Program-made: the position numbers and the translations under genes
From: a plasmid
Direction: 5' to 3' (one strand)
Sequence record: NZ_CP041047.1
DNA length: 64,000 nt
In this document: piece by piece, positions 2,793 to 21,444 of the stretch
How positions within the stretch are numbered: position 1 is the stretch's first letter
How the letters are laid out: each line of letters begins with the position of its first letter
Notes under the pieces: model-generated
The model's database searches: none
Seen by the model: only the letters and a program-made list of their open reading frames with translations
Told to the model about the DNA's origin: nothing

Positions 2793-3374
2793 ATGACAAC
2801 CATGACACGGGAACGGCTGCTCAGCGAAGCAGAACACCTGATGCGCGAAAAAGGGTATTCAGTATTCAGCTATGCTGATTTATCAAAAATAGTGGGTATC
2901 ACCAAGGCCAGTATTCATCACCATTTCCCGACCAAAGATATTCTGGGTGAGCAGGTGGTAATACAGGCGTTCTCTGATACACAACGCGTATTTGAGCAGA
3001 TAGAGGCGACTGAGAAAAGCGCGGAGAGAAGAATTGCGGCTTACATCGATATCTTCGCGCAAAGCCATAAAGCTTCGCTACTGCCACTGTGTTGTGCGTT
3101 GTCAGCAGAGACCGCCAATCTGCCTCAGGCAATTACTGTACAGACATCACTTTATTTCGATATGCAAATCGAGTGGCTCACAAAAGTCGTCAGGGCGGGC
3201 ATGGAGTCAGGTGAGTTTTCATCCCATGCCGAACCATCAGATATTGCTTTGATGATCATTAATGTCTGTGAAGGCTCAAGCGTAGTGGCGCATGCAACGG
3301 CCAGACCCGAAGTCTTCGCCAACAGCCTTAAGTATATAAAACTGCTTCTTAATACCCCTCATTCAGGAGAATGA
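2793..3374 (+). CDS. TetR/AcrR family transcriptional regulator
   Basis: The N-terminal HTH (YADLSKIVGITKASIHHHFPTKD) is characteristic of the TetR family. Confidence 0.85.
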   Translation: MTTMTRERLLSEAEHLMREKGYSVFSYADLSKIVGITKASIHHHFPTKDILGEQVVIQAFSDTQRVFEQIEATEKSAERRIAAYIDIFAQSHKASLLPLCCALSAETANLPQAITVQTSLYFDMQIEWLTKVVRAGMESGEFSSHAEPSDIALMIINVCEGSSVVAHATARPEVFANSLKYIKLLLNTPHSGE

Positions 3375-3378
3375 CACT

Positions 3379-3717
3379 ATGCTGGACTGGAACAACTATC
3401 GCTCAGAGTTAATGCAACGTTTAGGCGAGTTGGGCAAACTGACCCCCGAGACCATGAAAGGCGTGGTTGCCCTGGGCAACGCAGGTAACAAAACTGACCT
3501 TTTGGGCGCAAAAGTGCGTGAACTCATTGCCCTGGCGTGCGCAGTCACAACCCGCTGCGACGGCTGTATTGCTTTTCACGCCGACGCCGCTGTGAAAGCC
3601 GGTGCAACCGACGCTGAAATTGCTGAAGCGCTGGGCGTGGCGATTAACCTCAACGCTGGCGCGGCGGTCATTCATTCAGCCCGCACTCTGGATGCCGTCG
3701 GTCAGGCACGCGGTTAA
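3379..3717 (+). CDS. Carboxymuconolactone decarboxylase / AhpD-like family protein
   Basis: 112 aa with a CxxC-type motif (TRCDGC) typical of the AhpD core. It is translationally coupled to tetR with a 4 bp gap. Confidence 0.7.
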   Translation: MLDWNNYRSELMQRLGELGKLTPETMKGVVALGNAGNKTDLLGAKVRELIALACAVTTRCDGCIAFHADAAVKAGATDAEIAEALGVAINLNAGAAVIHSARTLDAVGQARG

Positions 3718-3746
3718 GCATTAATAAATTCCACGTTAAAAGGGCA

Positions 3747-4079
3747 TTACTGCCCTTTTTTTATGTCCGCAATAGCCTGAGCATATACCGATGCAGGTTT
3801 CACACCCGGTATGCGTTTAACTAATTGCCCTTCATGAAATATCAGCACAGACGGCAGCCCCCAGATCTCGTATTTGGTTGTCAGCACCGGCGCCTGATCT
3901 ACATTGACTTTCCCCACCTGAATATCTCTATCGAGCCGGTCTGCAAACTGACTGAACATTTCTTCGCTGGCCTGACAGGGCGGACACCAGGGTGCAGAGA
4001 AACGTACCACCGATATTCCTTTGTACTGCTCTATCTGGCGGAAATTATCTTCGTTATAAGCTGTTAATGTACGCATGGT
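3747..4079 (-). CDS. Thioredoxin with an unusual WCPPC active site
   Basis: Thioredoxin fold with WCPPC in place of the canonical WCGPC. Likely start is MRTLTAYNE with a GAGG Shine-Dalgarno. Confidence 0.8.
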   Translation of the reverse strand, partial: TMRTLTAYNEDNFRQIEQYKGISVVRFSAPWCPPCQASEEMFSQFADRLDRDIQVGKVNVDQAPVLTTKYEIWGLPSVLIFHEGQLVKRIPGVKPASVYAQAIADIKKGQ

Positions 4080-4152
4080 GATGACCTCGCAAAATGAGTG
4101 ACAATTCAGGAATGGCTGCGTTATGACAAAAAAATACGACACACCCATTGAC

Positions 4153-4171
4153 CTACCTACTAGATGGTTGG
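4153..4171. promoter_or_regulatory. Putative TetR operator (CTACCTACTAGATGGTTGG) in the divergent thioredoxin/OYE promoter region
   Basis: 17 of 19 positions match the site at 2026-2044. Confidence 0.4.
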
Positions 4172-4289
4172 CATATTGCCACCCATCAGATGTTTATGCA
4201 ACTCCAGTGCGCGACGTCCAGTCGATGATACTGCCGGGCTGTGCAAATCCCTGCCGGGATACTCCTTTTTGTTTTTTGTGAGGTATACG

Positions 4290-5396
4290 ATGAGTAAGCT
4301 TTTCACCCCCTACAATCTGTCTGGCCTGGCGTTAAAAAACCGTGTAGTCATGGCACCGATGACCCGCACCCGCACCATGAATGACGTGCCGGATGAGGTC
4401 GTGGCTTTGTACTATGCACAGCGTGCTTCTGCTGGCCTGCTCATCACCGAAGGGATGCCGGTTTCAGAAGAAGGCCGGGGTTACCTTTATACCCCTGGTA
4501 TCTACAACGACGAACACGTCCAGGGCTGGCGTAAAGTGACACAAGCGGTTCACGCCAAAGGTGGCCGTATTTTCGCGCAGCTCTGGCACGTCGGCCGTAT
4601 GTCTCACGTCTCTCTTCAGCCAGGCCACATAGCGCCGGTTTCAGCGGGCACCGTTCAGGCGGTCAATACCACCGTTTTTGCGCTGACCGAATCCGGAGAA
4701 CCGGGCCCGGTTGTACCAAGCCAGCCACGCGCGCTGGAAACGCATGAAGTTAAACGCATCACTGCAGACTTCGTGCACTCCGCACGCCTGGCGATGGAAG
4801 CCGGCTTTGACGGCGTGGAAATCATGGCGGCAAACGGATTCATCTTTGACCAGTTCCTCAGTAGCGAACTGAACACCCGCACCGACGAATACGGCGGCTC
4901 GGTGGAAAATCGTCAGCGTTTCCTGCTGGAGACCATTGACGCCGTGGCGGAAGCCGTGGGTAACAGCCACGTTGCCGTGCGCCTGTCACCGTTCGGCCGC
5001 ATTTATGACCTCGCGCCGTATGAAGGTGAAGAGCAAACCTGGTCAGCCATCACCGACGCGCTCGGTCAGCGGGAACTGGCCTACGTACACCTTTACTATC
5101 AGCCGGTGTACACCAAAGCGCCACTTCCGGAAGGCTTCCGCCGCCGTTTTCGCAACACGTTTAAAGGCACCATCATCGCTGCCGGCGGTTTTACCCGTGA
5201 TATCGCAGAGCAGGCTCTGGAAGATGATGAGCTGGATCTGGTGGCATTTGGTGTGCCCTACATCGCTAACCCGGATCTGGTTGAAAGAATGCAAAACGGC
5301 TGGCCACTGGCAGAAAGTGACCGCGCCACCTACTACGGCGTCAGTGGTTCCCCGGAAAAAGGCTATACCGATTACCCGGTCTGGCAGGCGCAATAA
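4290..5396 (+). CDS. Old Yellow Enzyme family NADH:flavin oxidoreductase / alkene reductase (NemA-like)
   Basis: N-terminus MSKLFTPYNLSGLALKNRVVMAPMTRTR and the overall profile match OYE/NemA-like reductases. Confidence 0.85.
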   Translation: MSKLFTPYNLSGLALKNRVVMAPMTRTRTMNDVPDEVVALYYAQRASAGLLITEGMPVSEEGRGYLYTPGIYNDEHVQGWRKVTQAVHAKGGRIFAQLWHVGRMSHVSLQPGHIAPVSAGTVQAVNTTVFALTESGEPGPVVPSQPRALETHEVKRITADFVHSARLAMEAGFDGVEIMAANGFIFDQFLSSELNTRTDEYGGSVENRQRFLLETIDAVAEAVGNSHVAVRLSPFGRIYDLAPYEGEEQTWSAITDALGQRELAYVHLYYQPVYTKAPLPEGFRRRFRNTFKGTIIAAGGFTRDIAEQALEDDELDLVAFGVPYIANPDLVERMQNGWPLAESDRATYYGVSGSPEKGYTDYPVWQAQ

Positions 5397-5461
5397 ATCC
5401 CATACGGTCGCGGTTCTCTGATAAGTGAGAACCGACCGCCCAACGTCTTTGAGGAATCATT

Positions 5462-6163
5462 ATGCAAACGCTGAAACCCACCCTTACCATCGATATCTGG
5501 TCAGATTTGGTCTGCCCGTGGTGCTGGATTGCTAAAAAAAGATTTGAACAGGGTCTGAATCGCTTTGAATTTCGCGACCAGGTGGTGATCCGCCATCACA
5601 GCTACCGTCTGGCCGGTGGTACTCCCGCGATGCCTTTTAAGGATGCCATCGTTAAAAAGCTGGGCAGTCAGCATTCAGCGGAGCTGATGATGAATCAGGT
5701 GGGCACCGCCGGTAAATCTGAAGGTCTGATCTACAACTTCGACGGCATGATGTTTGGTGATACAGAAGATGCACACACCCTGCTGGTTGCCGCGCGTAAG
5801 GCCGGAATTGCGGACACGGTGGAAGAACGTTTTTATCATGGCAGTATCACCGAAGGTCGCTCTCTCTTTGACCGTCAGCAGCTCGTTGCCATGGCCGTAG
5901 AAGCCGGTATGCCGAAAGCTGACGCTGAAGCCGCCCTGGAAAATGACGATTTTCGCGCCACCGTTTCCGACGATGAAGCCCACGCACAGTCTATTGGCCT
6001 CAGCGGCGTTCCGGTTTTTGTGATGAACGAAAAATATGCCATCAGCGGGGCTCAGGCAGCAGATAACTTTTTGAATGCCCTGCGTCAGGTCTGGGATGAA
6101 CAGCAAACCGAATTTTCAGCCACTGCGGGTCAGACCTGCGGAACGGATGGCTGCAGTATTTAA
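5462..6163 (+). CDS. DsbA-family (FrnE-like) thiol-disulfide oxidoreductase
   Basis: CPWC active-site motif near the N-terminus (DLVCPWCW). Confidence 0.8.
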   Translation: MQTLKPTLTIDIWSDLVCPWCWIAKKRFEQGLNRFEFRDQVVIRHHSYRLAGGTPAMPFKDAIVKKLGSQHSAELMMNQVGTAGKSEGLIYNFDGMMFGDTEDAHTLLVAARKAGIADTVEERFYHGSITEGRSLFDRQQLVAMAVEAGMPKADAEAALENDDFRATVSDDEAHAQSIGLSGVPVFVMNEKYAISGAQAADNFLNALRQVWDEQQTEFSATAGQTCGTDGCSI

Positions 6164-6228
6164 TCCGTCAACCGCCGGCAGTTTCACGCTGCCGGCAACG
6201 TCTTACCCACCAGTAATGGAGTCAGAAA

Positions 6229-7002
6229 ATGAACACTTTTTTCAAAGGTAAAAAACTGCTCGTCGTCGGCGGTACCAGCGGCATGGGCCTGGCCGTGGCA
6301 CGCATGGTACTGGAAGCGGGCGGCAGTGTCGTGCTGACCGGGAATAAAAAAGACAAAGCCGAAGCGGTGCAAAAAGAACTGAGCCCTCTGGGACCGGTTG
6401 CGGTCATCGCGGCGAACCTGATGACCGAAGAAGGTATGGAAACTATCCGTCAGGAAATTAATGCTCACCATCACGATATCAGCCTGATGGTGAATGCCGC
6501 CGGTATCTTCATGCCCAAAGGATTTACCGAGCACAGCTTTGCCGATTATGACATGTATCTTTCGCTGAACCGAGCCACGTTCTTTATTACACAGGATGTC
6601 GTGAAGAACATGCTCGCCGCGAAGCTCGAAGGGTCTATCGTCAACGTCGGTTCGATTGGTGCTCAGGCTGCACTGGGTGACTCGCCGGCCTCGGCCTATT
6701 CAATGGCAAAAGCGGGTCTGCATGCCCTGACGCGTAATCTGGCGATTGAGCTGGCCAGCGCGGGTATTCGTGTCAACGCGGTGTCTCCCGGGATTGTTCA
6801 TACGCCGATATACGAAGGCTTCATGGACAAAGCGGATATCGCAGATGCTATGAAGTCGCTGAACGATTTCCACCCGCTGGGACGCGTCGGAACTGCCGAA
6901 GATGTGGCAAACACTATTCTCTTCCTGTTGTCTGACAAAACCTCATGGGTGACGGGCGCTATCTGGGATGTCGATGCGGGCATCATGGCGGTCAGACGAT
7001 AA
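6229..7002 (+). CDS. SDR family oxidoreductase
   Basis: Rossmann motif GGTSGMGLA and catalytic YxxxK (YSMAK). Confidence 0.85.
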   Translation: MNTFFKGKKLLVVGGTSGMGLAVARMVLEAGGSVVLTGNKKDKAEAVQKELSPLGPVAVIAANLMTEEGMETIRQEINAHHHDISLMVNAAGIFMPKGFTEHSFADYDMYLSLNRATFFITQDVVKNMLAAKLEGSIVNVGSIGAQAALGDSPASAYSMAKAGLHALTRNLAIELASAGIRVNAVSPGIVHTPIYEGFMDKADIADAMKSLNDFHPLGRVGTAEDVANTILFLLSDKTSWVTGAIWDVDAGIMAVRR

Positions 7003-7036
7003 CCCCGTGACGCTGGCATAAGCCGCCCCTTAAGGG

Positions 7037-7856
7037 GGCACTGTTGCAAATAGTCGGTGGTGATAAACTTATCATCCCCTTTTGCTGATGGAGCTGCACA
7101 TGAACCCATTCAAAGGCCGGCATTTTCAGCGTGACATCATTCTGTGGGCCGTACGCTGGTACTGCAAATACGGCATCAGTTACCGTGAGCTGCAGGAGAT
7201 GCTGGCTGAACGCGGAGTGAATGTCGATCACTCCACGATTTACCGCTGGGTTCAGCGTTATGCGCCTGAAATGGAAAAACGGCTGCGCTGGTACTGGCGT
7301 AACCCTTCCGATCTTTGCCCGTGGCACATGGATGAAACCTACGTGAAGGTCAATGGCCGCTGGGCGTATCTGTACCGGGCCGTCGACAGCCGGGGCCGCA
7401 CTGTCGATTTTTATCTCTCCTCCCGTCGTAACAGCAAAGCTGCATACCGGTTTCTGGGTAAAATCCTCAACAACGTGAAGAAGTGGCAGATCCCGCGATT
7501 CATCAACACGGATAAAGCGCCCGCCTATGGTCGCGCGCTTGCTCTGCTCAAACGCGAAGGCCGGTGCCCGTCTGACGTTGAACACCGACAGATTAAGTAC
7601 CGGAACAACGTGATTGAATGCGATCATGGCAAACTGAAACGGATAATCGGCGCCACGCTGGGATTTAAATCCATGAAGACGGCTTACGCCACCATCAAAG
7701 GTATTGAGGTGATGCGTGCACTACGCAAAGGCCAGGCCTCAGCATTTTATTATGGTGATCCCCTGGGCGAAATGCGCCTGGTAAGCAGAGTTTTTGAAAT
7801 GTAAGGCCTTTGAATAAGACAAAAGGCTGCCTCATCGCTAACTTTGCAACAGTGCC
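7037..7856 (+). mobile_element. IS26 (complete, 820 bp)
   Basis: 14 bp terminal inverted repeats GGCACTGTTGCAAA are present at both ends, and the element encodes the Tnp26 protein. Confidence 0.95.
7100..7804 (+). CDS. tnpA: IS26 transposase Tnp26
   Basis: MNPFKGRHFQRDIILWAVRWYCKYGISYRELQEM... matches the canonical 234 aa Tnp26. Confidence 0.95.
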   Translation: MNPFKGRHFQRDIILWAVRWYCKYGISYRELQEMLAERGVNVDHSTIYRWVQRYAPEMEKRLRWYWRNPSDLCPWHMDETYVKVNGRWAYLYRAVDSRGRTVDFYLSSRRNSKAAYRFLGKILNNVKKWQIPRFINTDKAPAYGRALALLKREGRCPSDVEHRQIKYRNNVIECDHGKLKRIIGATLGFKSMKTAYATIKGIEVMRALRKGQASAFYYGDPLGEMRLVSRVFEM

Positions 7857-7857
7857 C

Positions 7858-8955
7858 ACCGTTGAACGTCACATCCGGGGCAAATGGGCCTGCGACAGCT
7901 GCGAGACGTTGATCCAGGCACCGGTGCCACCGCAGGTGATCGACAAAGGCATCCCCACCGCTGGCCTGCTGGCCCAGGTGCTGGTGGCCAAGTATGCCGA
8001 CCATCTGCCGCTGTACCGTCAGGAACGCATGTTCGGCCGTGCCGGCCTGGAAATCCCGCGCTCCACCCTGGCCGAATGGGTGGGTGCCTGTGGTGTGCAG
8101 TTGCAGCCGCTGGTGGATGCGTTGAGAAATACTCTGCTGGAACACAGTGTTCTGCATGCCGATGAAACCCCGGTCAGCATGCTGGCCCCGGGCAAGAAGA
8201 AAACCCACAAGGCCTACGTCTGGGCCTACTGCACCACACCGTTTGCCGACCTGAAGGCAGCTATTTACGACTTCGCACCCAGCCGTGCAGGCGAACACGC
8301 CCGAACCTTCCTGGGTGACTGGCGGGGCAAGCTGGTCTGTGATGATTACGCTGGCTACAAGGCCGGGTTCGGCAACGGCATTACCGAAATCGGCTGTATG
8401 GCCCACGCCCGGCGCAAGTTCTATGACCTGCACGAGGCCAACAAGAGCGAATTGGCGGCCAAGGCCTTGGAATACATCGGTGGACTCTACGAGATCGAGC
8501 GGGAAACCAAAGATCTGCCACCGGATATGCGGCGGGAAATCCGGCAAACCAAAGCCAAACCCCTTGCCGATGCGCTGCATCAGTGGATGCTGGCCCATCG
8601 CCAGAAAGTGCCGGATGGCTCCGGCACGGCCAAAGCCCTGGATTACAGCCTCAAACGTTGGGAAGCGCTGACGCGCTACCTGGACGATGGCGCTGTGCCC
8701 ATCGACAACAACTGGGTGGAAAACCAGATCCGACCCTGGGCGCTGGGGCGCAGCAATTGGCTGTTTGCGGGTTCACTGCGCAGTGGTCAACGTGCGGCTG
8801 CGGTCATGACCCTAATACAGTCAGCGAAGCTGAATCGGCATGATCCCTATGCCTACCTGAAGGATGTGCTGACTCGCCTGCCGACACAGAAGAACAACGC
8901 CATCGACGAGCTATTGCCCCACAACTGGAAACCGGCCATACCTAACAAGGTGTAG
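7858..8955 (+). pseudogene. IS66-family transposase (TnpC), N-terminally truncated by IS26
   Basis: It has the CxxC zinc-finger (WACDSCE) and the conserved IS66 TnpC core and C-terminus (LNRHDPYAYLKDVLTRLP). The coding sequence begins abruptly at the IS26 right end. Confidence 0.8.
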
Positions 8956-9205
8956 GCCGGACGTGTATGGAGAGCCTTCTTCGAAAGCTGGACAAGGTGC
9001 CAACTCTAGACGGCAGGATATGCCCTGGGAGATCGATGAGAGAAAGAGGAGGCCATAAGTAGAAAATTTCCCAAGCGACTGGTGGCTCGCTAGGCATACG
9101 TGTCGTGTTACTCCTAAGTTATTAGACACACTAGATTTTCCGGGCTTTGCTGGGCTGCGGGTGTCGCAGGTGTATGCCGCACGGAGATCGCAGTTAAACC
9201 TGATA

Positions 9206-9769
9206 CTAGGCCGGCTCATGCACTAGCCGGATGTCGATTTCTCTGTCGACATACTTCCACTCCACCGAGGCCCGGAGTTCGGCCAAAAGCCTGTTAAAGC
9301 CCGGCTCATCAGACGGGGAATATTCGAACCACGTCAAGAAGTCGAAGGGTTCGCTCTCGCCCAGGTCCCGACAATGGTGGAGACGACGGGCCACAGCAGG
9401 GAGATATTGGAGCCCAATGTGAATGTGACGGGACTGCTCCTCAAAAATCTTCCGGCGTTCGTCTTGAGCCAGTCCCCACCATGAGGGGTTTTTCCGGATA
9501 GGGATCAGGGCGGCACAGGTGGCCTCTGCTCGACCCAAACTTGGCTGCTTCGCCACGAGACGATCCTTCTCTTCACGCACGACATAACGCTCGTTACTCG
9601 TTATCCCGCGAAGAAGCCATTTGGTGCCCAAAGGCTGCGGCGAAACAGAGCCAGCGGCTACGTCGAGCCGGGGGATTCCAGGGAGAGGGGCTCCCGCCAC
9701 GGCATCCATCCGAACAACGCGCCAAACACCCGTTTCTCCACCAGCGAACGTAAATAATCGTGTATTCAT
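9206..9769 (-). CDS. Chlorite dismutase / HemQ-family-like protein (tentative)
   Basis: The WWGL...ERR...H...G pattern and a C-terminal WKYV motif resemble the Cld/HemQ family. It lies in a high-GC segment. Confidence 0.35.
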   Translation of the reverse strand: MNTRLFTFAGGETGVWRVVRMDAVAGAPLPGIPRLDVAAGSVSPQPLGTKWLLRGITSNERYVVREEKDRLVAKQPSLGRAEATCAALIPIRKNPSWWGLAQDERRKIFEEQSRHIHIGLQYLPAVARRLHHCRDLGESEPFDFLTWFEYSPSDEPGFNRLLAELRASVEWKYVDREIDIRLVHEPA

Positions 9770-9792
9770 CAGTTTCCTCTCAGGCCTTTCGC

Positions 9793-10167
9793 CTATTTCT
9801 CAGCCAACGCAAAACCGGCATTGCCCGGCGCAACCACTGAAACAAATATAAAAGGTTCGGGGCCAGAGTTCATTGCACCATGTACCTGCCCAGGTTTTGC
9901 GATCGCAATATCTCCAGCTTTAAGATGAGTGACTATGCCGTTACCTTGATGATATTCGGCTTCACCTGAGATAACCGTCCAAGTATCTTGGCCGTGAGGA
10001 TGTACATGGGAAGCTATTTCCTGCCCAGGGTGGGCGTGCCAAACAACGACGACAGAGTCATTGGTTTCCAGAACAACCGAACGAATCGGTTCGCCGTTAG
10101 ACGGACGAACATATTCATCCACCGAAAAAATCCGCGATTCAGTTTCTGCTCTCATGTTCACACCCAT
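9793..10167 (-). CDS. Cupin domain protein
   Basis: Two His-containing cupin motifs (HAHPGQEIASHVHPHGQDTW ... PGQVHGAMN). Confidence 0.7.
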   Translation of the reverse strand: MGVNMRAETESRIFSVDEYVRPSNGEPIRSVVLETNDSVVVVWHAHPGQEIASHVHPHGQDTWTVISGEAEYHQGNGIVTHLKAGDIAIAKPGQVHGAMNSGPEPFIFVSVVAPGNAGFALAEK

Positions 10168-10231
10168 TTAAAACTGATTGGACACGTACTCTAAACGCAA
10201 CTGCGCCTGGACAGCACATGAAGATATGTAC

Positions 10232-10660
10232 CTAAGCGCCCTTCGGGAAAACTATGCTCTGGCGCACAGAGACCGTCAATACTCCGTCGTGGGTAGGCAT
10301 GACATAACGGGAGGAGACGGGCGACGCTTTGGTCATATGTACATGAGAAGGTGGCTCGCCCGCTCGGCAGGGTTGTTGTCGATGGGCAGGTGTCCCCCTT
10401 TCGATGTAGCGGATCAGCTTTAACCAGTTGCTCGCAAGGCAATTGATTGCTTGCCCAAGGCACTTTGACGACGTGACCTGGGGAGGGGTTTTGTCCAGCC
10501 TAGCTTTCAGTTGCTCCAGGAAAGCCTGGCTTTGCGACTGGCGCGTCTGGTATCGCTGGGCATCGCCCGCCTCTTCCATGTCGCGCTCGATGCCGTAGAG
10601 CTTGTTGATAAGAGTCAGTGCCATCTCCGCTCGGCCGATCTTGCCCTTGGATTGAGTTTT
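10232..10660 (-). pseudogene. IS66-family transposase fragment
   Basis: The segment ...KCLGQAINCLASNWLKLIRYIERG... matches the conserved IS66 TnpC region, and the remainder of the ORF is unrelated junk. Confidence 0.5.
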
Positions 10661-10915
10661 CTGATGAACTTGCGCCGCGCATGCCCAGCAACCTATACGC
10701 TCGACGCCTTTCTGCCTCCAGGAGGCGCTGCGGCACCTCCTGGGTACGGCTAGCGGTGTAATTGAACAGGATGACCGGAAGATTTGGTGGGCCACCGCGA
10801 TCTCCTCAGTAGCTATAGCCAAACAGGTTGGGTATGAGAAGTTCAAGGGGGGGCGAGCAAAGCCCCCGTTCCAATTGATTCTCTATTCCACACAAATGGC
10901 GATATAAGCCGGCGG

Positions 10916-11040
10916 GTGATGACGACCCTGGAAGCTCTGGCATCGAGAGTGGATGTCTACTCCATCGACGAGGCGTTTCTGGATCTGACCGGAATCGACC
11001 GGGTGGTAAGCTTCGAGCCTTTTGGTCGGCAGGCGATTTG
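10916..11040 (+). pseudogene. Y-family DNA polymerase (UmuC/MucB-like) N-terminal fragment
   Basis: VYSIDEAFLDLTG is the hallmark UmuC/DinB motif (compare [13 protein letters not shown] in the intact copy at 55054). Only about 40 codons are present. Confidence 0.5.
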
Positions 11041-11373
11041 GCTCAAGGTGGAATCACCGGACGGTTACGATACAACGGTCAACGCTTGCGCCTGCTGTCG
11101 ATTGACACCCCGGAAACCTACAAGCCCAGGTGCGACGCCGAGCTGACGAAGGGCCGCGAGGCAACCGCACGCCTCCGCGAACTGGTTGCCAACGCTCAGC
11201 GCATCGAGGTTGTCGATTCCGGCCAAGCCGACAAGTACGACCGCCGCCTTGTTCACCTGCTGATCGACGGGCGGGACGTGGGGCAAACCCTCATGGCCGA
11301 GGGGTTAGCCGTTGAGTGGAGGCCCGGCCCGAATGCGTGGAGGGAACGCCGTCGCCACTGGTGCGGATACTGA
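11038..11373 (+). CDS. nuc: Thermonuclease (staphylococcal-nuclease-like, nuc-like), probably N-terminally truncated
   Basis: SNase-family motifs LSIDTPE ... KYDRRLVHL..DG.DVGQ.L...GLA. Confidence 0.5.
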   Translation: MAQGGITGRLRYNGQRLRLLSIDTPETYKPRCDAELTKGREATARLRELVANAQRIEVVDSGQADKYDRRLVHLLIDGRDVGQTLMAEGLAVEWRPGPNAWRERRRHWCGY

Positions 11374-11795
11374 TCGCTTTTCAGCTTGAGCCAGGAGCGC
11401 CCCGCCGCAGTGATCGGCACTTGTGTCGATCCGAGGAGGCGCAAGAGCCACAAGCCCCTGATAGGACCACGTAACGCGGCCATGCCACTAGAGCACGGCC
11501 GCTTTTTTCTTTTAAAAACAAAAATATAAAAAAATCCTGTTGCTTGAGCCGGTGGTATTGTGGGCAACTGCCGACCTGTTGGCAGGGTGGGGGCAACCGC
11601 TCGCGGTTGTCCCTGGCCTGTCAATGGGGAACCGCGAAGCGGTTAGGCAGGTATCCGGCTTGCCGGATTGTCCATAATTCCACGGGCTGTTTTCCCCAGG
11701 GCTACACGTTTTATATATGTTTTTTTTGTTTTAAAGAGTTTTAGGGAATCAGAAGGCAAAATTTACCTTCATTATCAGTTGCTTATAGAACCCCT

Positions 11796-11981
11796 CGGTG
11801 GGTAATAGACGGTTTCCGGTGGGTAATAGACGGGGTTGGGTGGGTAAACGACGGAACCGGGTGGGTAATAGACGGACTATCCACAGGCTGGATCGCCGGA
11901 TCGATCCCCTCCCGTCTATTACACACCCGCCTTGCGCAAACCCTGACCAGTAGTCGCCTCGCGCTCCGTCTATTACACACC
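11796..11981. repeat. Iteron array: four direct ~21 bp repeats (CGGTGGGTAATAGACGG) plus two inverted copies (CCGTCTATTACACACC), with a DnaA-box-like CTATCCACA and flanking AT-rich DNA
   Basis: Direct repeats begin at 11796, 11817, 11838 and 11858 with 21 bp periodicity. The inverted copies are at 11912-11927 and 11966-11981, and the DnaA-like box is at 11877-11885. AT-rich tracts lie at 11500-11530 and 11700-11790. Confidence 0.6.
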
Positions 11982-11991
11982 GCCGCGCTTA

Positions 11992-12183
11992 GTATTCGCC
12001 TGGGTCCAGTGGGGGGAGAACCCCGGAGCTGCTGACGACTTCCCCGCGTTGCGGACGCTCGACCGTCTCGCCGGGTTTCAGCGGATAGCGCCGCAGCACT
12101 CGCCCGTATTCTTCGCTCGCCCGCTTTGCTTCCACGCGCACGCGGCCAGACTCCGAGTTGACGCAGTTCAGGTAATTTTCTGT
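11992..12183 (-). pseudogene. 3' end of an unknown gene, possibly the plasmid rep gene, truncated by IS26
   Basis: A 64-codon C-terminal ORF (...TENYLNCVNSESGRVRVEAK...LDPGEY*) ends 8 bp from the iterons, and its 5' part is replaced by the IS26 left end at 12184. Confidence 0.25.
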
Positions 12184-12924
12184 GGCACTGTTGCAAATAG
12201 TCGGTGGTGATAAACTTATCATCCCCTTTTGCTGATGGAGCTGCACATGAACCCATTCAAAGGCCGGCATTTTCAGCGTGACATCATTCTGTGGGCCGTA
12301 CGCTGGTACTGCAAATACGGCATCAGTTACCGTGAGCTGCAGGAGATGCTGGCTGAACGCGGAGTGAATGTCGATCACTCCACGATTTACCGCTGGGTTC
12401 AGCGTTATGCGCCTGAAATGGAAAAACGGCTGCGCTGGTACTGGCGTAACCCTTCCGATCTTTGCCCGTGGCACATGGATGAAACCTACGTGAAGGTCAA
12501 TGGCCGCTGGGCGTATCTGTACCGGGCCGTCGACAGCCGGGGCCGCACTGTCGATTTTTATCTCTCCTCCCGTCGTAACAGCAAAGCTGCATACCGGTTT
12601 CTGGGTAAAATCCTCAACAACGTGAAGAAGTGGCAGATCCCGCGATTCATCAACACGGATAAAGCGCCCGCCTATGGTCGCGCGCTTGCTCTGCTCAAAC
12701 GCGAAGGCCGGTGCCCGTCTGACGTTGAACACCGACAGATTAAGTACCGGAACAACGTGATTGAATGCGATCATGGCAAACTGAAACGGATAATCGGCGC
12801 CACGCTGGGATTTAAATCCATGAAGACGGCTTACGCCACCATCAAAGGTATTGAGGTGATGCGTGCACTACGCAAAGGCCAGGCCTCAGCATTTTATTAT
12901 GGTGATCCCCTGGGCGAAATGCGC
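12184..12924 (+). mobile_element. IS26 copy truncated at its 3' end (missing ~79 bp including the right IR), abutting the next IS26
   Basis: The left IR is at 12184. The sequence matches IS26 through ...GGCGAAATGCGC, then the next IS26 left IR begins at 12925, so the tnp ORF reads through (GEMRGTVANSRW). Confidence 0.9.
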
Positions 12925-13744
12925 GGCACTGTTGCAAATAGTCGGTGGTGATAAACTTATCATCCCCTTTTGCTGATGGAGCTGCACATGAACCCATTCA
13001 AAGGCCGGCATTTTCAGCGTGACATCATTCTGTGGGCCGTACGCTGGTACTGCAAATACGGCATCAGTTACCGTGAGCTGCAGGAGATGCTGGCTGAACG
13101 CGGAGTGAATGTCGATCACTCCACGATTTACCGCTGGGTTCAGCGTTATGCGCCTGAAATGGAAAAACGGCTGCGCTGGTACTGGCGTAACCCTTCCGAT
13201 CTTTGCCCGTGGCACATGGATGAAACCTACGTGAAGGTCAATGGCCGCTGGGCGTATCTGTACCGGGCCGTCGACAGCCGGGGCCGCACTGTCGATTTTT
13301 ATCTCTCCTCCCGTCGTAACAGCAAAGCTGCATACCGGTTTCTGGGTAAAATCCTCAACAACGTGAAGAAGTGGCAGATCCCGCGATTCATCAACACGGA
13401 TAAAGCGCCCGCCTATGGTCGCGCGCTTGCTCTGCTCAAACGCGAAGGCCGGTGCCCGTCTGACGTTGAACACCGACAGATTAAGTACCGGAACAACGTG
13501 ATTGAATGCGATCATGGCAAACTGAAACGGATAATCGGCGCCACGCTGGGATTTAAATCCATGAAGACGGCTTACGCCACCATCAAAGGTATTGAGGTGA
13601 TGCGTGCACTACGCAAAGGCCAGGCCTCAGCATTTTATTATGGTGATCCCCTGGGCGAAATGCGCCTGGTAAGCAGAGTTTTTGAAATGTAAGGCCTTTG
13701 AATAAGACAAAACGCTGCCTCATCGCTAACTTTGCAACAGTGCC
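12925..13744 (+). mobile_element. IS26 (complete, 820 bp), in tandem with the truncated copy
   Basis: Both 14 bp IRs are present, and the tnp gene at 12988-13692 is identical to the other copies. Confidence 0.95.
12988..13692 (+). CDS. tnpA: IS26 transposase Tnp26
   Basis: Identical to the other Tnp26 copies. Confidence 0.95.
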   Translation: MNPFKGRHFQRDIILWAVRWYCKYGISYRELQEMLAERGVNVDHSTIYRWVQRYAPEMEKRLRWYWRNPSDLCPWHMDETYVKVNGRWAYLYRAVDSRGRTVDFYLSSRRNSKAAYRFLGKILNNVKKWQIPRFINTDKAPAYGRALALLKREGRCPSDVEHRQIKYRNNVIECDHGKLKRIIGATLGFKSMKTAYATIKGIEVMRALRKGQASAFYYGDPLGEMRLVSRVFEM

Positions 13745-14018
13745 CCTAATCGTGTTCAGCAGAATAGCCGGAGGAAGTTTCCTACTGTCGATAAGAAAGG
13801 ATTGGCACAGGGAGTGTGAATATCGAAACACCATCACAGAATAATGCCAGATAGAAATGCGATAGTAGGGGTGGATATTTAAATAAGGAGCATCCCGACT
13901 TAAAATGAATATGACTGCGTAACCAGGCGCAATAAAAAAAGCGAAAGAATCGCTTTTATTCTGGTTGTTTTTTCGAAGAGTGACCGTTTTCTGAGATGAC
14001 AAGAAATAAGGAAGTCCT

Positions 14019-17656: not shown

Positions 17657-18097
17657 GAGGTGGTAGATGCATAGATTGCAGCGCGTAAATGACGCTCCAC
17701 CATGACCATCATCCGGTGAATGGTGACATCCCGTGAACTCTGTGCCATTCGTTCGGCTCCGGCATTCATTGCATCTGCAAGGATCGCTGCCATAAGCGCT
17801 GCTTCGTCTTCTGCCTGTTCTCCGGTGCGATAATGGGTGAAACAAATTCCCGGCAGCGACAATGTGGCTTCATATGCCACTGGACTGGGGTATTGCCTGT
17901 CGCCATGACACCATTGAAGGCTGGATTCTTAAATTTTCTAATCGAGGGCTGTGCAAAATTAGCTACGTCCGCTTCACGCTGTGAGTTCAATAATTGTGTT
18001 GCGTCCATCAGTTGAAATCACAGCTCAAAGTAGACGCTCATTCTCACTGGAATGCTTTGCTTTCACCTTGCCAGAGGACAAATCCTTTGTCCCGCAA

Positions 18098-19375
18098 CTA
18101 TGGTTTTTTATTAGGATTTTCGCCACTGAATAAATTATAATAAATTGATTTTATAAGATATTCGTCATGGGCTATATGACCAGTACGAGTTGCATGCTCT
18201 AATGTTTCAGATGCCAGTATATGTGCGGCTTCAGCAAACATCCCAGGCCAACCCTTACTCAGCATAGACAGTCCTTTAAGGACTCTTATCTGAATCTCCC
18301 TCATACTCGCACCATCACGTGCAACAGGTAAGAAAAAGTCTTCCAGTAGGTCTTTGATCTGAAGTGGCGCAACATGTACTGAAGGATATATCACTTCAGT
18401 TTCATCTATTTTATTCTGCGCGTAAGCGGAGAGTATTCGAACACCTCTGCCAATGACATCAATCGCAGTACCGGGATCGTTTACTGCGGGCGAAAGGGCC
18501 CTGCAGGCTATTTCGGCCATGACGCTGAGACAGAATCGGGGATCCTGAGCAAATGAACGCACATCCGAGACAATGATCGTTTCAAGTAAATCGGTACAGA
18601 TTGATGACTCCTGACCAGAACTCAGGTACAAAACTGGCATCGATGGATGTATGAAACTGCCTGGCTGCGCCACAAGATATACATGACGAGGATCATTGCT
18701 CAGCAGACTGCCGAGCTTGACCATGTCAATATATTCAACATAGCCAATTTTCTCCGGATATACGGCAACAGTTCCTTTTGGTTGTTCATTGTTCTCAAGC
18801 CATGGATATCCGCCAAGACATGGACTTTTTGCTCTCGCAATAAATGTCTCGATCGCCGCCTGTTCTACTTTTGCTGTTGTCTCACCTACCCTGCCCAGAG
18901 AGGTCAAATGCTGTATCCAGCGAAGCAATGTGCTGATTATTAAGGCAATGACAACCAGTGTTACAATGAATAAAATGACTCTACCCCTTTCTCCGTAGGC
19001 TCCCATATTGAGGGCAATAATCCCTACCAGGCTGAAGAGAAAAGAACCGATAAAAGTGGCCAGTACATTTTGTGTGGTTACGTCTTCTACAACTAAACGC
19101 GTGGCTCTGGGCGTCACATTAGTAGTGGCTGAACCGTAAGCGGTGACCATGATACTCAGTGAAAATGTGGTCACCGCCAGCATACTCGATGCCAGTATGT
19201 TCAGAATATTATCAACTGCTTCCGCACCAACCTTCACTGATACTGACTCTGGGATCATTGATCTAAAAAGAATAGATAAAAGGGCCGTTATTATTGCTAC
19301 CATTGCAAATAACGTTGCCCTGAACCATAGCTTTTTAAGTGTCTGCCTGAGAATCCATTGCCAGCGTGAAATCAT
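18098..19375 (-). CDS. DUF2254-family membrane protein
   Basis: 425 aa with N-terminal transmembrane helices followed by a large soluble domain. The family assignment is from recalled similarity, not a profile search. Confidence 0.55.
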   Translation of the reverse strand: MISRWQWILRQTLKKLWFRATLFAMVAIITALLSILFRSMIPESVSVKVGAEAVDNILNILASSMLAVTTFSLSIMVTAYGSATTNVTPRATRLVVEDVTTQNVLATFIGSFLFSLVGIIALNMGAYGERGRVILFIVTLVVIALIISTLLRWIQHLTSLGRVGETTAKVEQAAIETFIARAKSPCLGGYPWLENNEQPKGTVAVYPEKIGYVEYIDMVKLGSLLSNDPRHVYLVAQPGSFIHPSMPVLYLSSGQESSICTDLLETIIVSDVRSFAQDPRFCLSVMAEIACRALSPAVNDPGTAIDVIGRGVRILSAYAQNKIDETEVIYPSVHVAPLQIKDLLEDFFLPVARDGASMREIQIRVLKGLSMLSKGWPGMFAEAAHILASETLEHATRTGHIAHDEYLIKSIYYNLFSGENPNKKP

Positions 19376-19438
19376 TCAGCATATCCTTGTATTAAGTTCG
19401 GGAAAATAAATGCCGCCCGGCAGGACGGCATTTTTGTA

Positions 19439-21444
19439 TTAACGAACGAGGTGCAGGAAGTGCAGGTGTTTTTCGTACTGGTCCAGTATGTCATTAATCA
19501 GCTGTTCCTGATTCCAGCCCATCACATCATAGTTTTGACCGCCTTCTTTCAGATAGACCTCAGCGCGATAATATCGATGTTGCTCAGCCTGCTGCTCGTC
19601 ATTGTCCATTGCAGCCATGGCGAAAGCCGGTGAGTTATAGCCACGAAGTCTCACTTCATAAATAAAGTTCAGCTCATTGCCCAAATCGACTTCAAGCCGA
19701 ATTCGTTCGTCATCAGTATCACTTATATGGCTTATCGTTCCCTGTTTATTCAGTTCTTCCTGAACCAGCGTCATGGCGGGCTGGATAACGTCGCCCATAA
19801 AGCGTTTCACAAGAGAGCGCTTTGGCAGATAAGCGATATTGCGCAAGCGTCTCTGCCATGGAATCGGGTTACGCGCTGCAGTCGGAGCAATAGTCGCCAT
19901 GCTCAGGCTTTCACGCTTGGTCAAATCCCGACGCAGGGCTTTTAATAATCCGTATATGGATATCAGTAAAATCACTGAGAAAGGTAATGCGCTCGCTATT
20001 GTCACGGTTTGCAGCGCGCTCAGTCCCCCCCGCAATCAGCAGTGCGATTGCCACAATCCCTATGAGCGAGGCCCAGAAAATTCGCTGCCATACAGGCGTG
20101 TTAGCGACGCCACCCGATGCCAGCGTATCAACAACCATTGCCCCCGGAGTCAGCCGAGGTGACAAAGAAGACAATGACCATCGCCATTGCAATAAATGAC
20201 AGCACGGAAGAAAACGGGAAATGCTCCAGGAAATTAAACAGGGCCAGCGCGACATCCTGCTGAACGGTATTGGCGAGATCAGCCGCCCCCTGGTGCATAA
20301 TGAGATAGATTGCGCTGTTACCAAACACCGTCATCCACATGAGCGTGAAGCCGGCGGGAACAAACAGCACGCCGGTGACAAACTCGCGAATGGTTCGACC
20401 GCGCGAGACTCTTGCGATGAACATCCCCACAAACGGCGACCATGAAAGCCACCATCCCCAGTACAGTAATGTCCAGCCCCCCAGCCAGTTGCTCGACTTA
20501 GGTTCATACGCATAAAGGTTAAAAGTTTTACTCACCAGTTCAGAAAGATAACCGCCCGTATTTTCCACAAATGACTTCAGCAGAAGCACGGTTGGTCCCA
20601 GACACAGGACCAGCGCCAGCAGCAGCACTGCCAGGCCCAGGTTGAGCTCAGACAGTATACGTATTCCCTTGTCCAGGCCGGACACCACCGAAATCGTCGC
20701 TAAACCAGTGATGACAACGATTAGAATCACCTGCACCGTTTCATTAATAGGCACCCCGAAAAGATGATTCAAACCAGCATTCACCTGCAAAACACCGTAC
20801 CCCAGCGATGTCGCAACGCCAAAGACGGTGCCAATAACGGCGAAAATATCAACCGCATGGCCTACAGGTCCGTATATGCGCTCGCCAATAATGGGATAAA
20901 GTGCGGAACGCAGCGTTAAAGGCAGACCGTGACGGTAACTGAAAAAGGCCAGGATCAGTGCCACAATGGCATAGATTGCCCATGCGTGCAGGCCCCAGTG
21001 GAAGAACGTCAGGCGCATTGCTTCCTTCGCTGCCGCAACGGTCTCTGGAGTGCCGACAGGAGGTGAAAGATAATGCATCACAGGTTCAGCAACGCCAAAG
21101 AACATCAGGCCGATCCCCATCCCTGCCGAGAAAAGCATCGCAAACCAGGAGTGATAGCTAAAATCAGGCTGCGCATGGTCCGGACCCAGTTTGATATCAC
21201 CGTAGCGTGAGAGTCCCAGGAACGAGACACTCAGTAGAATCAGGGCCACTGCAAGGATGTAGAACCAGCTGGCATTCGTGAAGATTTGTTGCTGAAGTAG
21301 TTTAAAATTTTTGTCGGCGACATCCGGGAATACAGCGGCAAAGGCGACAAGAAGGAAAATTAACAAAGCAGATGTAAAGAATACCGCTTTGTTAATCTGG
21401 CTTTTAGACTTCTTTTGGATTGTATCATTTTCACTCATAATCAT
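19439..21444 (-). pseudogene. betT: BCCT-family choline/betaine transporter (BetT-like), disrupted by two frameshifts
   Basis: Three consecutive ORFs (20128-21444, 19911-20324, 19439-20035) together align along E. coli BetT, including the C-terminal motif ITDILDQYERHL. Confidence 0.75.

Follow-up and report, generated by a model that had tools for sequence, protein, structure and literature searches.

Within the 64,000-nt stretch of plasmid NZ_CP041047.1 that we analyzed (hereafter the window), positions 11068-12183 are very probably a 1.1-kb remnant of a conjugative plasmid, which carries a complete iteron origin of the pSN1216-29/RPA-RepA type, has lost its initiator, and has been spread by hitch-hiking with IS26. 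The segment is 99.7% identical over 1,116 bp to positions 10097-11212 of a 33.8-kb plasmid-like contig of Pokkaliibacter sp. MBI-7 (JARVTG010000004.1, assembly GCA_029846635.1; here L072), its closest sequenced relative, and only three substitutions separate it from this parent-type plasmid in the 804 bp at 11380-12183. The features of the segment are listed below.

11068-12183, no strand assigned: the whole relic (1,116 bp), with the truncated nuclease gene, hairpin module, AT-rich region, iterons and truncated orf118
11068-11373, plus strand: 3' part of a thermonuclease (SNase) gene (Pfam SNase match, 1.7e-10)
11503-11535, no strand assigned: A/T tract 1, which flanks the hairpin module on its outer side (read from the sequence)
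11547-11688, plus strand: multi-branched hairpin module of ~142 nt and 60 base pairs (RNAalifold on 10 sequences), with an outer stem, a long hairpin (11575-11628), a GCGAAGC mini-hairpin (11630-11644) and a hairpin at 11651-11669
11559, 11588, 11668 and 11677: DnaA-box-like sequences in or beside the stems (TGTGGGCAA, TGGGGGCAA, TTGTCCATA and ATTCCAC, respectively)
11709-11744, no strand assigned: A/T tract 2, the AT-rich region and predicted DNA-unwinding element, TTTTATATATGTTTTTTTTGTTTTAAAGAGTTTTA
11797-11875, plus strand: four direct 16-nt iterons starting at 11797, 11818, 11839 and 11860, exactly 21 nt from start to start
11877-11885, plus strand: DnaA box CTATCCACA (cTATCCACA), between the direct and inverted iteron sets
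11912-11981, minus strand: two inverted iterons (11912-11927 and 11966-11981), which read CCGTCTATTACACACC in the window and GGTGTGTAATAGACGG on the minus strand
11989-12183, minus strand: the 3' 64 codons and stop of orf118, with no start codon; the stop lies 8 nt from the outer inverted repeat
12184-12197, plus strand: IS26 terminal inverted repeat GGCACTGTTGCAAA, the right edge of the relic (read from the sequence)

Origin elements and the parent-type plasmid

Every feature of the initial annotation is found where it had been placed, and the repeats are real and far beyond chance. The direct copies read GGTGGGTAATAGACGG at 11797, 11818 and 11860 and GGTGGGTAAACGACGG at 11839, and the degenerate pattern GGTGKGTAANNGACGG has six exact matches in the 64-kb window, all inside 11797-11981, against a chance expectation of about 0.5 in 64 kb even with two mismatches allowed. 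The strict E. coli pattern for DnaA boxes, TTNTNCACA, is not matched anywhere in the region, and the boxes there are relaxed variants. The two A/T tracts are in part inverted copies of one another, and a tract like the first also precedes the hairpin module in the PromA-like contigs L056 and L069 and in L031.

This arrangement corresponds, element by element, to the origin of pSN1216-29. In that plasmid the iteron is CCGTC(T/C)(A/T)TTACCCAC, the DnaA boxes are defined as YYCCACA, the repeats are required for replication of a repA mini-replicon, and deletion of a 35-bp AT-rich region abolished replication (Yanagiya et al. 2018, PMC6232296). The window likewise has the iteron CCGTCTATTACCCACC in four tandem copies, all in the 21-bp period (three match the published pattern exactly and one with two changes), YYCCACA boxes, two inverted iterons (one or two in the family), a 35-bp AT-rich region that shares the motif TGTTTTAAA(A)GA(A)GTTTTAGGG and, in its parent, an initiator of the RPA family (PF10134). 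The iteron part is ~80% identical to pSN1216-29 and pMH0621-12, in which it follows closely on repA and likewise comprises four direct iterons, two inverted ones and a DnaA box; pKPN-704, pEC743_4, pJHX613 and the second replicon of pSRC119-A/C also belong to this family.

A scan of 185,579 species genomes for an iteron pair yielded 16 loci in Alpha-, Beta- and Gammaproteobacteria. Eight of these, and two PLSDB plasmids in addition, have a long RepA-like ORF whose end falls within or at the outer inverted iteron, and in Variovorax the end of an RPA-type RepA lies ~60 bp past it. All origin elements are conserved in an alignment of 13 loci (the window and 12 others from the same three classes), with a common layout of AT-rich stretch, four iterons, DnaA box and inverted iteron(s). 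The column of the window box at 11877-11885 reads ATCCACA in 12 of the 13 origins and GTCCACA in Camelimonas; GTTTTAA...TGTTTTAAAGAGTTTTAG is kept in position and sequence in the 13 related origins (the window motif at 11709-11744 is GTTTTAAAGAGTTTTAG); and every relative has one or two inverted iterons in the corresponding place. By homology to a single relative with experimental data (iteron region ~80%, RepA 64% identical), the segment is thus taken for a vegetative origin, in agreement with the initial annotation, which had read four direct and two inverted repeats with a 21-bp period, a DnaA-like box and AT-rich flanks as an origin of the iteron type.

Other origin types fit less well. 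IncQ-type oriVs have RepC-bound iterons of ~20 bp, spaced 2 bp apart, and ssi hairpins specific for the RepB' primase on opposite strands; the type was considered for its layout of iterons, AT-rich sequence and hairpins, and the iteron sequence assigns the window to the RPA family instead. No RepC, RepA-helicase or RepB genes were found at the L072 locus. The 17-bp PromA iteron CGCTGAAacTGTCTTGC has only three chance-level matches in the window, all far from the region, and the 17-bp IncP-1 (TrfA) iteron TGACA(G/C)(A/T)TGAGGGGC (consensus from PMC9499019) has none with up to two mismatches.

The parent-type plasmid differs from pSN1216-29 in its arrangement. The repA gene of pSN1216-29 abuts the origin, its stop codon lying inside the outer inverted iteron, whereas in the parent lineage the origin is detached from repA and inverted relative to it, and a second small iteron cluster directly follows repA. 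The gene order in L072 is kfrA, nuc, origin, orf118, a resolvase gene, an RHH gene and the RPA repA. This cognate repA (L072 12451-13656) lies 1.4 kb beyond orf118; its product is ~64% identical to the RepA of pSN1216-29 and has no NCBIfam match. A Vibrio parahaemolyticus relative (JBLYZY010000033.1) shows the same detached-origin architecture, including the hairpin module, with a gap of 5.5 kb between origin and repA. The upstream GTTATSCACAGG DnaA box of the other relatives is absent from the relic and its parent lineage, where this position is taken by the hairpin module, which in the relic includes TTGTCCATA and ATTCCAC. The cluster in the window may be a copy-control or regulatory array rather than the origin that fires, a second cluster being present directly after repA in the parent.

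In L072 the plasmid backbone is whole: besides kfrA, korA, a Fic toxin-antitoxin pair and a type IV secretion system, it has an intact nuclease gene, an intact orf118 and the cognate repA. The window keeps 1,116 bp of it only. The relic is likely derived from a conjugative plasmid of a marine or environmental gammaproteobacterium. The homology to the parent-type plasmid starts at 11068 and stops at the edge of IS26. Left of 11068 lie cld, cupin, IS66 and umuC pieces, of other origin than the relic; the 9.2-12.2 kb region, taken for one foreign block by the initial annotation, is on these comparisons a mosaic, with homology to the parent-type plasmid at 11068-12183 only. Nor is a cointegrated whole plasmid, which had also been proposed, indicated by 1,116 bp cut in the nuclease gene on one side and by IS26 on the other.

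The nuclease gene lacks its first 32 codons in the window, signal peptide included, and the rest is 99% identical to a full-length homologue of 133 aa (P0016). A tblastn search found no homologue of it in the other RPA-type origin loci, and it is therefore not a conserved neighbor of such origins. Near the Burkholderia origin there is another, different nuclease. At the right edge, an IS26 transposase is annotated directly after the identical junction in NZ_LT883141.1, and likewise in identical RefSeq plasmid copies; L025, L077 and L078 carry the same IS26 junction.

The window has the iterons, the DnaA box flanking them and the ~35-bp AT-rich region of a pSN1216-29-type origin. Unlike pSN1216-29, it has no rep: no cis RPA-family (PF10134) repA ends at the outer inverted iteron, and no RPA rep is encoded anywhere in the 64 kb, which are only part of the host replicon, so that a cognate rep could in principle lie elsewhere on the molecule. 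The window therefore holds an origin of the pSN1216-29 type without its replicon. In PLSDB, no RepA is more than 79% identical to the cognate (Pokkaliibacter-type) RepA, and Klebsiella was outside the ten most frequent host genera in this search. With no cognate RepA in the window and none at least 80% identical in PLSDB, the origin is best regarded as an orphan relic; a relic that had lost its initiator was also what the initial annotation had envisaged.

We propose the following history. In the parent plasmid, the four direct iterons, set on one face of the helix by their 21-bp period, would be bound by RepA monomers; RepA and host DnaA at the flanking boxes would melt the AT-rich element and recruit DnaB, and the displaced plus strand would fold into the hairpin module, most likely a DnaA-dependent single-strand priming site. 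The rest of the plasmid, repA included, would have been lost through a break in the nuclease gene at the left end and through IS26 at the right, leaving an origin that is presumably silent by itself in vivo and persists as a passenger of the IS26-cld-IS26 unit described below.

Structure and distribution of the hairpin module

The origin is of an ordinary kind, and the hairpin module is its modestly interesting part. In the 10-sequence RNAalifold alignment, 98.3% of cells are paired in the consensus structure, with compensatory changes in nine pairs as compared with 1.9 after shuffling and 0-2 in slid controls. With a larger set of sequences fitted to the model, covariation was seen in 43 of the 60 pairs (24.7 in shuffles). 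Folded as DNA, the plus strand reaches -47.2 kcal/mol (z -7.2 vs shuffles) and the minus strand -35.2 (z -4.4). The covariance model scores 149 bits in the window, 143 in L072 and 86 in the Vibrio relative. The strand-biased fold and the covariation show that the GC-rich palindromes to which the initial annotation had drawn attention at 11560-11690 form a real and conserved structure, one that resembles ssi elements. The module holds six DnaA-box-like 9-mers in a symmetrical arrangement, and the boxes in the stems match the E. coli DnaA consensus at 7-8 of 9 positions.

Our best guess, by analogy, is that the module serves as a DnaA-dependent single-strand priming site. At the A-site, according to the account in PMC6127211 (after Masai et al. 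1990; Masai and Arai 1995), DnaA binds a hairpin and loads DnaB-DnaC and primase. The module resembles the A-site in being a strand-specific stable DNA hairpin with DnaA-box-like sequences in its duplex stems, beside a plasmid origin. It differs in its size of ~142 nt, in its three internal hairpins and in having several boxes (7-8/9 matches) instead of one, so that kinship with the A-site serves here as a working analogy.

It is quite possible, though not the reading we favor, that the module is no priming site but either a double-stranded cluster of DnaA boxes that mimics stems or a small structured RNA. The symmetrical placement of the six 9-mers would suit a cluster, and RK2-type origins use inverted DnaA-box pairs; the compensatory changes, however, include helices 2, 4 and 5, which hold no DnaA box. 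The preference for one strand arises through G-U/G-T pairs, as it would in a transcript. Yet a scan for such signals found neither a sigma-70-like promoter nor an intrinsic terminator, no Rfam family was matched (the best sub-threshold hit, to a microRNA-like hairpin, reached 29 bits vs a threshold of 90), and the PromA plasmids have no co-oriented gene upstream of the module.

The candidate priming site is not confined to this lineage. It also occurs in the PromA plasmids pIPO2T (34029-34156), pSFA231 (7853-8030), pTer331 and pSB102, in copies 84-85% identical to that of the window, the shared part being the hairpin module and not the iterons, and it is structurally conserved in plasmids of the pXAC64, pXF51 and pRSC35 types (Xanthomonas, Xylella, Ralstonia class). 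In PromA plasmids the module is found within 1.5 kb of non-coding DNA, and the published PromA iterons are ~3.5 kb away. Where the plasmid is of the RepA_C type, the module follows the rep stop codon at a distance of 100-400 bp. The module thus also adjoins origins served by a different Rep family. We considered it as part of the PromA oriV and dropped the idea, since the published iteron is separated from it by 3.5 kb in pIPO2T and by ~3.9 kb in pSFA231; a PromA position of '5.1 kb downstream of repA' (PMC4290620) matches neither the pIPO2T nor the pSFA231 position.

Spread of the relic and possible activity in trans

Of 457 PLSDB plasmids that match the relic segment, about 446 carry it in identical form, and its carriers are ~450 Enterobacterales plasmids in Klebsiella, Escherichia and Enterobacter. 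It travels, together with cld, a cupin gene and 'genes of unknown function', in the IS26-bounded module published as the IS26-cld-IS26 unit of the Klebsiella IncF plasmids pKPN-c22, p6234-198.371kb and pKPSH11, the last of which is among the matching records (PMC7319535). The published description mentions neither an origin nor iterons, nor a plasmid provenance of the right-hand 1.1 kb (PMC7319535). One copy of the relic lacks exactly two iterons, as expected for unselected repeats; in principle, selection instead of recent spread could account for the near-perfect conservation over ~450 plasmids.

We regard as doubtful, but not negligible, the alternative that the relic is not inert: it would be fired in trans by a RepA of the same family, or its iterons would titrate or handcuff such a RepA and thereby cause incompatibility. 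All origin elements are intact and near-identical to the parent, and the iteron core is near-invariant across the family despite RepA identities of 54-79%, which makes cross-recognition plausible. Cloned iterons are classical incompatibility determinants, and plasmids of the pSN1216-29 family occur in clinical Enterobacterales, the hosts of plasmids of this type including Salmonella, Serratia, Providencia, Proteus, E. coli and P. aeruginosa. However, the identity over ~450 copies is explained equally well by recent IS26-driven spread, the loss of two iterons in one copy had no apparent consequence, and no family member co-resident with the unit was seen in the data searched.

A broader reading, which we likewise consider unlikely, combines such activity with a more general role of the hairpin module as a portable origin accessory of an undescribed sort. 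The module may be a strand-specific cassette for DnaA-dependent priming or helicase loading, recruited separately, beside AT-rich or iteron regions, by unrelated replicons with RPA-type RepA, IncW/PromA-like RepA_C or DnaD/HTH_36-type Rep proteins. The orphan origin, in some 450 clinical Enterobacterales plasmids, may at the same time be fired by the RepA of incoming broad-host-range plasmids of the pSN1216-29 type, or exclude them by iteron titration. The reading we prefer remains that of a silent passenger origin with a candidate priming site.

The neighboring gene and implications for resistance plasmids

That the repeats form a parS-like partition centromere or a transcriptional operator array instead of an origin is highly improbable. 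Short direct and inverted repeats are typical of centromeres and operators too, and the parent's immediate left neighbors of the origin are kfrA and the nuclease gene, not rep; but the repA mini-replicon of pSN1216-29 needs these repeats (PMC6232296), in every case an RPA-family rep, a DnaA box and an AT-rich stretch accompany them, and no parA/parB pair adjoins them in L072.

The gene next to the iterons has, as recognized from the outset, lost its 5' end to IS26 at 12184, leaving the 64-codon ORF that stops 8 nt from the repeat. Its intact form in L072 (11018-11374) encodes a 118-aa protein with an N-terminal signal peptide (MTTKALYLITFLVTVSSAQAQC...) and no family assignment, of which IS26 removed the 5' 54 codons. 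Over the tail, P0034 (118 aa) is 100% identical and P0035 (137 aa), a second family member, 55%. The tail has no Pfam match, and neither orf118 nor P0035 has an NCBIfam match. BLASTP against the RepA proteins of pMH0621-12 and of a Burkholderia plasmid found no similarity to the tail, a word-indexed protein search returned only IS26-truncated copies of it, and neither the species-genome scan for the tail nor a metagenome scan for an orf118 junction free of IS26 gave a match; the parent-type contig was reached through the neighboring nuclease gene.

The proposal of the initial annotation that this ORF is the C-terminus of the origin's own rep, decapitated by IS26, scarcely survives: it runs toward the iterons and ends 8 nt off, much as the long RepA-like ORFs of the ten related loci end in or at the outer inverted iteron, and a G7 run one base shorter would end it as '...GGV*' inside the iteron, a frame seen in the metagenomic P0006 and P0011, but the intact gene encodes a signal-peptide protein with a second member in P0035, the tail resembles no RepA, and the real RPA repA of the parent lies further on, on the opposite strand. 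On this comparison the reading is already refuted by L072. The frameshift idea was given up, P0006 and P0011 coming from error-laden long-read assemblies of the same IS26 unit, and an alignment by eye of 'ENYLNCVNSESGRVRVEAKR' to the RepA motif 'LPEY.L....G......R' was dropped once the intact 118-aa gene was known. The tail, in short, is the 3' half of a 118-aa non-replication protein in a 99.7% identical plasmid, which removes the rep part of the original proposal and leaves the origin part standing.

Hundreds of sequenced resistance plasmids of Klebsiella, E. coli and Enterobacter carry this 1.1-kb segment without annotation or as a 'hypothetical protein'. Its parts can now be labeled: the remains of a nuclease gene, an orphan oriV of the pSN1216-29/RPA type and the remains of a gene for an exported protein. 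The segment shows a further route for the entry of environmental plasmid DNA into IS26 units. Replicon-typing and origin-prediction tools keyed to iterons could miscall the relic as a second replicon, which it is not. If it is true that the iterons still bind a related RepA, the unit would influence which plasmids are able to coexist with the resistance plasmids that carry it. The hairpin module, finally, is a well-defined and covariation-supported candidate for a DnaA-dependent priming element, common to several plasmid families, including those of the plant pathogens Xanthomonas, Xylella and Ralstonia.

An iteron origin of the RPA-RepA type

The repeat array is built of 16-nt units, the direct ones with a start-to-start period of exactly 21 nt. 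A degenerate pattern of the unit matches exactly at 6 sites of the 64-kb window, and all six fall within one 185-bp stretch; the chance expectation for the window is ~0.5 even if two mismatches are allowed. All the elements listed in the initial annotation (repeat array, DnaA box, A/T tracts, palindromes, headless ORF and IS26 boundary) were found in the sequence.

Origin elements and adjoining features
11503-11535 and 11709-11744: A/T tracts
Between these two tracts: GC-rich palindromic stretch
11797, 11818 and 11860 (starts): direct 16-nt units GGTGGGTAATAGACGG, three copies
11839 (start): variant direct 16-nt unit GGTGGGTAAACGACGG, one copy
11877-11885: DnaA box CTATCCACA
11912 and 11966: inverted units CCGTCTATTACACACC, two copies
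11989-12183, minus strand: headless 64-codon ORF without a start codon
12184: start of the IS26 terminal repeat

A sensitive DNA search found the iteron part to be ~80% identical to pMH0621-12 and pSN1216-29, plasmids of uncultured bacteria, and to resemble small Burkholderia and Xanthomonas plasmids; in all of these the homologous stretch lies directly 3' of a gene annotated as replication initiator protein A. Like the window, these relatives combine four direct units and one or two inverted ones with a DnaA box, and have an AT-rich stretch past the direct units. In pSN1216-29, iterons of the form CCGTC(T/C)(A/T)TTACCCAC are accompanied by three YYCCACA DnaA boxes and a 35-bp AT-rich region, deletions defined the minimal replicon as repA plus the iterons, DnaA boxes and AT-rich region, and the plasmid was shown to replicate in hosts from several proteobacterial classes (Yanagiya et al., PMC6232296).

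An iteron-pair scan of 185,579 species, one genome each, returned 16 loci in Alpha-, Beta- and Gammaproteobacteria. In half of these (8/16), and in both PLSDB plasmids examined, a long RepA-like ORF points to the repeats and terminates within or at the outer inverted unit; at the Variovorax locus, the end of an RPA-type RepA (family PF10134) lies ~60 bp past that unit. When 13 loci were aligned, the AT-rich motif (GTTTTAA...TGTTTTAAAGAGTTTTAG), the iterons (four per locus, five in Camelimonas), the inverted iterons and, in 12/13, an ATCCACA box were conserved and collinear with the window. Neither PromA nor IncP-1 iterons were found in the window. The reading of the array as an iteron origin is borne out by its pSN1216-29-like anatomy and by this 13-locus collinearity: judged on these sequence features, it is an iteron-type vegetative origin of the pSN1216-29/RPA-RepA kind, a further member of a type already characterized experimentally in pSN1216-29.

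The parent plasmid and the gene truncated by IS26

The nuclease fragment to the left of the origin has a full-length homologue (133 aa, 99% identical) in Pokkaliibacter sp. MBI-7, through which we identified the parent contig (JARVTG010000004.1, 33.8 kb), 99.7% identical to window 11068-12183 over 1,116 bp. To the right of orf118, the intact form of the headless ORF, this contig carries genes for first a serine recombinase and then a small ribbon-helix-helix protein, followed by repA on the opposite strand; repA encodes a 401-aa RPA-family protein (PF10134, 2e-64), and its stop codon falls within a further iteron. The left side has kfrA and the nuclease gene and, beyond them, genes for type IV secretion, korA and the pair of Fic toxin and VbhA antitoxin; the contig is a conjugative plasmid backbone. 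The alignment and gene order therefore resolve the window's relic into a truncated nuc, the origin and a truncated orf118, with its left break at 11068, inside the nuclease gene, and its right break at 12183, made by IS26. At the left break, a short umuC/impB-type polymerase fragment (10916-11067; a weak Pfam IMS match) runs straight into the truncated nuclease gene, and some databases annotate the fusion as a single "DNA repair nucleotidyltransferase" protein (P0022).

The initial annotation raised the possibility that the ORF cut by IS26 is rep. Compared with Rep proteins, the 64-codon tail had no similarity to the RepA proteins of the pSN1216-29-type family, and it had no Pfam match. A word-indexed search of 5.8 billion proteins matched it to IS26-truncated copies only, several of them from error-rich long-read assemblies, and in RefSeq copies of the junction the gene after it is annotated as IS26 transposase. 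The intact parental gene encodes a 118-aa protein whose N-terminus (MTTKALYLITFLVTVSSAQAQC...) is a signal peptide, of which the window keeps the last 64 codons, and the RPA repA is a separate gene on the same contig. This refutes the idea: the truncated ORF is orf118, not rep. Its product has no Pfam or NCBIfam assignment, and an exhaustive HMMER search of 1.84 billion representative proteins returned only the 118-aa protein and one distant relative (P0035, 137 aa, with a signal-peptide-like N-terminus by inspection). The family (11018-11374 in the parent contig; P0035) is very rare, with these two cluster representatives.

The full origin is detached from repA by 1.4 kb in Pokkaliibacter and by 5.5 kb in a Vibrio parahaemolyticus plasmid contig (JBLYZY010000033.1), and in both its orientation is opposite to the canonical one. 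Next to repA itself lies a second and minimal cluster, made up of the stop-codon iteron and one or two opposite iterons (13648-13800 in the Pokkaliibacter contig, 10806-10930 in the Vibrio contig); in Vibrio, its iterons lie around a 90-bp AT-rich spacer. We infer that the first cluster is the firing origin of the parent lineage because it alone has four iterons, a DnaA box and an AT-rich element, the elements required in pSN1216-29. The second cluster could act in copy control, in handcuffing or as a second origin, and our choice of the first cluster is the main caveat to naming the window array "the" origin. Iterons in inverted orientation bound the segment that runs from the outer inverted iteron of the main origin to the repA-stop iteron (10995-13663 in Pokkaliibacter, 4255-10821 in Vibrio). 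This segment carries a serine recombinase gene; flipping it would give back the canonical layout in which repA ends in the origin, and it may be an ancient or switchable inversion.

An orphan origin in a widespread IS26 unit

The search for a cognate rep elsewhere (tblastn, three family RepA queries) detected no RPA RepA in the 64-kb window. The parent RepA has 135 relatives in PLSDB, none above 79% identity, so that no PLSDB plasmid yielded a cognate initiator at 80% identity or above. The relic is carried mainly by Klebsiella, which is not one of the ten commonest host genera of these relatives. Since iteron plasmids need their cognate Rep for origin opening, the window origin would be unable to fire by itself, which supports its earlier description as an inactive relic. 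One PLSDB copy, in pKPSH11 (NZ_KT896504.1, 1918-2060), has only two direct iterons left after a clean 42-bp deletion equivalent to 11818-11859, a repeat slippage of the kind expected without selection.

Window 11380-12183 matches 457 PLSDB plasmids, ~446 of them at 99% identity or more, from Klebsiella (371), Escherichia (45), Enterobacter (31) and a few other hosts, and every copy examined has the same IS26 junction at its right end. The surrounding module (cld, a cupin gene, and IS66, umuC and nuclease fragments) has been published as an "IS26-cld-IS26 unit" with "some genes of unknown function", in a description that makes no mention of an origin (PMC7319535). As far as the searchable literature goes, the presence of the origin in this widespread unit, and its source, are new.

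Features to the left of the relic
7810-8955 and 10232-10846: IS66-family transposase fragments, flanking the cld and cupin genes
9206-9769: cld
9793-10167: cupin gene

Because IS66 fragments surround cld and the cupin gene, the 9.2-12.2 kb region, initially described as distinctly GC-rich, is a mosaic in which three or more unrelated pieces are joined. To the right, 12184-13700 holds a tandem pair of IS26 copies: the one starting at 12184 is missing its right end, and the other, whose terminal repeat (GGCACTGTTGCAAA) abuts it at 12926, is apparently complete, with its transposase ORF at 12970-13692. The remainder of the window (1-7000 and 18000-31500) is rich in metabolic cargo, not in resistance genes, and includes an N-ethylmaleimide/alkene reductase, enolase, a manganese-dependent pyrophosphatase and a Cu/Zn efflux-type transporter, with IS5, IS110 and IS26 elements scattered among it.

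A hairpin module at origin regions

Within the GC-rich palindromes (11547-11688), the stretch 11558-11683 shares 84-85% identity with a non-coding element found in PromA plasmids, e.g., pIPO2T, pSFA231, pTer331 and pSB102. Ten aligned sequences (the window, two PromA plasmids and seven metagenome contigs) share a single multi-branched fold of 60 pairs, with 98.3% of cells paired and 9 compensatory pairs, as compared with 1.9 in column shuffles and 0-2 with slid partners. A covariance model built from this alignment scored 149 bits in the window, 143 in the parent, 86 in the Vibrio relative, where the copy lies just left of the four iterons and had been missed by an exact-pattern search, and 39-64 at a second class of metagenomic loci, each match scoring far higher on one strand than on the other. 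In the wider set, which was fitted to the model, 43/60 pairs were compensatory (24.7 shuffled, 17-24 slid). Folded as DNA, the + strand reaches -47.2 kcal/mol (z -7.2) and the - strand -35.2 (z -4.4), the + strand folding better because several G-T pairs are conserved. One arm is a GCGAAGC mini-hairpin, of a sequence class that forms unusually stable DNA hairpins.

Three second-class loci have the module 100-400 bp past the stop codon of a PF04796 (RepA_C) rep gene, on the strand opposite to rep and with an AT-rich stretch between; at one locus it is 3' of a DnaD/HTH_36-type rep gene, and it often adjoins kfrA. The second class is found in PLSDB in Xanthomonas pXAC64-type, Xylella and Ralstonia plasmids. 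In PromA plasmids, whose published iterons are 3.5 kb away, the module lies within a non-coding gap of 1.5 kb; this gap (pSFA231, 7700-8250; pIPO2T, 3800-4260) also holds many short TTGGCGAC, GTCGCCAA and TTGTCACC motifs in both orientations, which resemble sites that a regulator or partition protein would bind. Canonical RPA-type origins are without the module and have a GTTATSCACAGG DnaA box in its place. Upstream of their AT-rich element (loci L004, 3700-3880, and L010, 430-580) is a GC-rich stretch with many small hairpins closed by GAA, GCA or GTA triloops, e.g., CCGCGAAGCGG and CCCGTAGGG, which may be the functional counterpart of the window module.

Among known mechanisms, the A site comes closest: a single-stranded hairpin that contains a dnaA box and serves DnaA as the platform for assembling DnaB, DnaC and primase into an "ABC primosome" (Masai 1990 and 1995, as cited in PMC6127211). 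The stems of the module carry DnaA-box-like 9-mers (TGTGGGCAA and TTGTCCA(C/T)A, then AATCCACA). In a model of DnaA-dependent priming, drawn from the geometry, Rep and DnaA would open the AT-rich element and the leftward helicase would displace the + strand, which would fold into the module; DnaA on the duplexed boxes would then load a second DnaB and primase onto this strand, supplying primer and helicase for the other fork. We put this model forward tentatively, as a serious possibility. The 9-mers might also make up a purely double-stranded DnaA-box cluster, which we consider unlikely; compensatory change also occurs in helices without a box (AACCGC/GCGGTT to GGCCGC/GCGGCC, and ATCCGGC/GCCGGAT to AGCCGGC/GCCGGCT). 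A small RNA, which could have such a one-stranded fold, is a more doubtful reading still, and no sigma-70-like promoter, intrinsic terminator or Rfam family was found for the module; other explanations take up what likelihood is left.

The initial comparison of the palindromes with an ssi-like structure remains plausible and gains comparative support from the conserved fold and its covariation. We found no published description of the module. By this comparative evidence, it is a conserved strand-specific structure common to the origin regions of several Rep families, and the most interesting by-product of the origin analysis.
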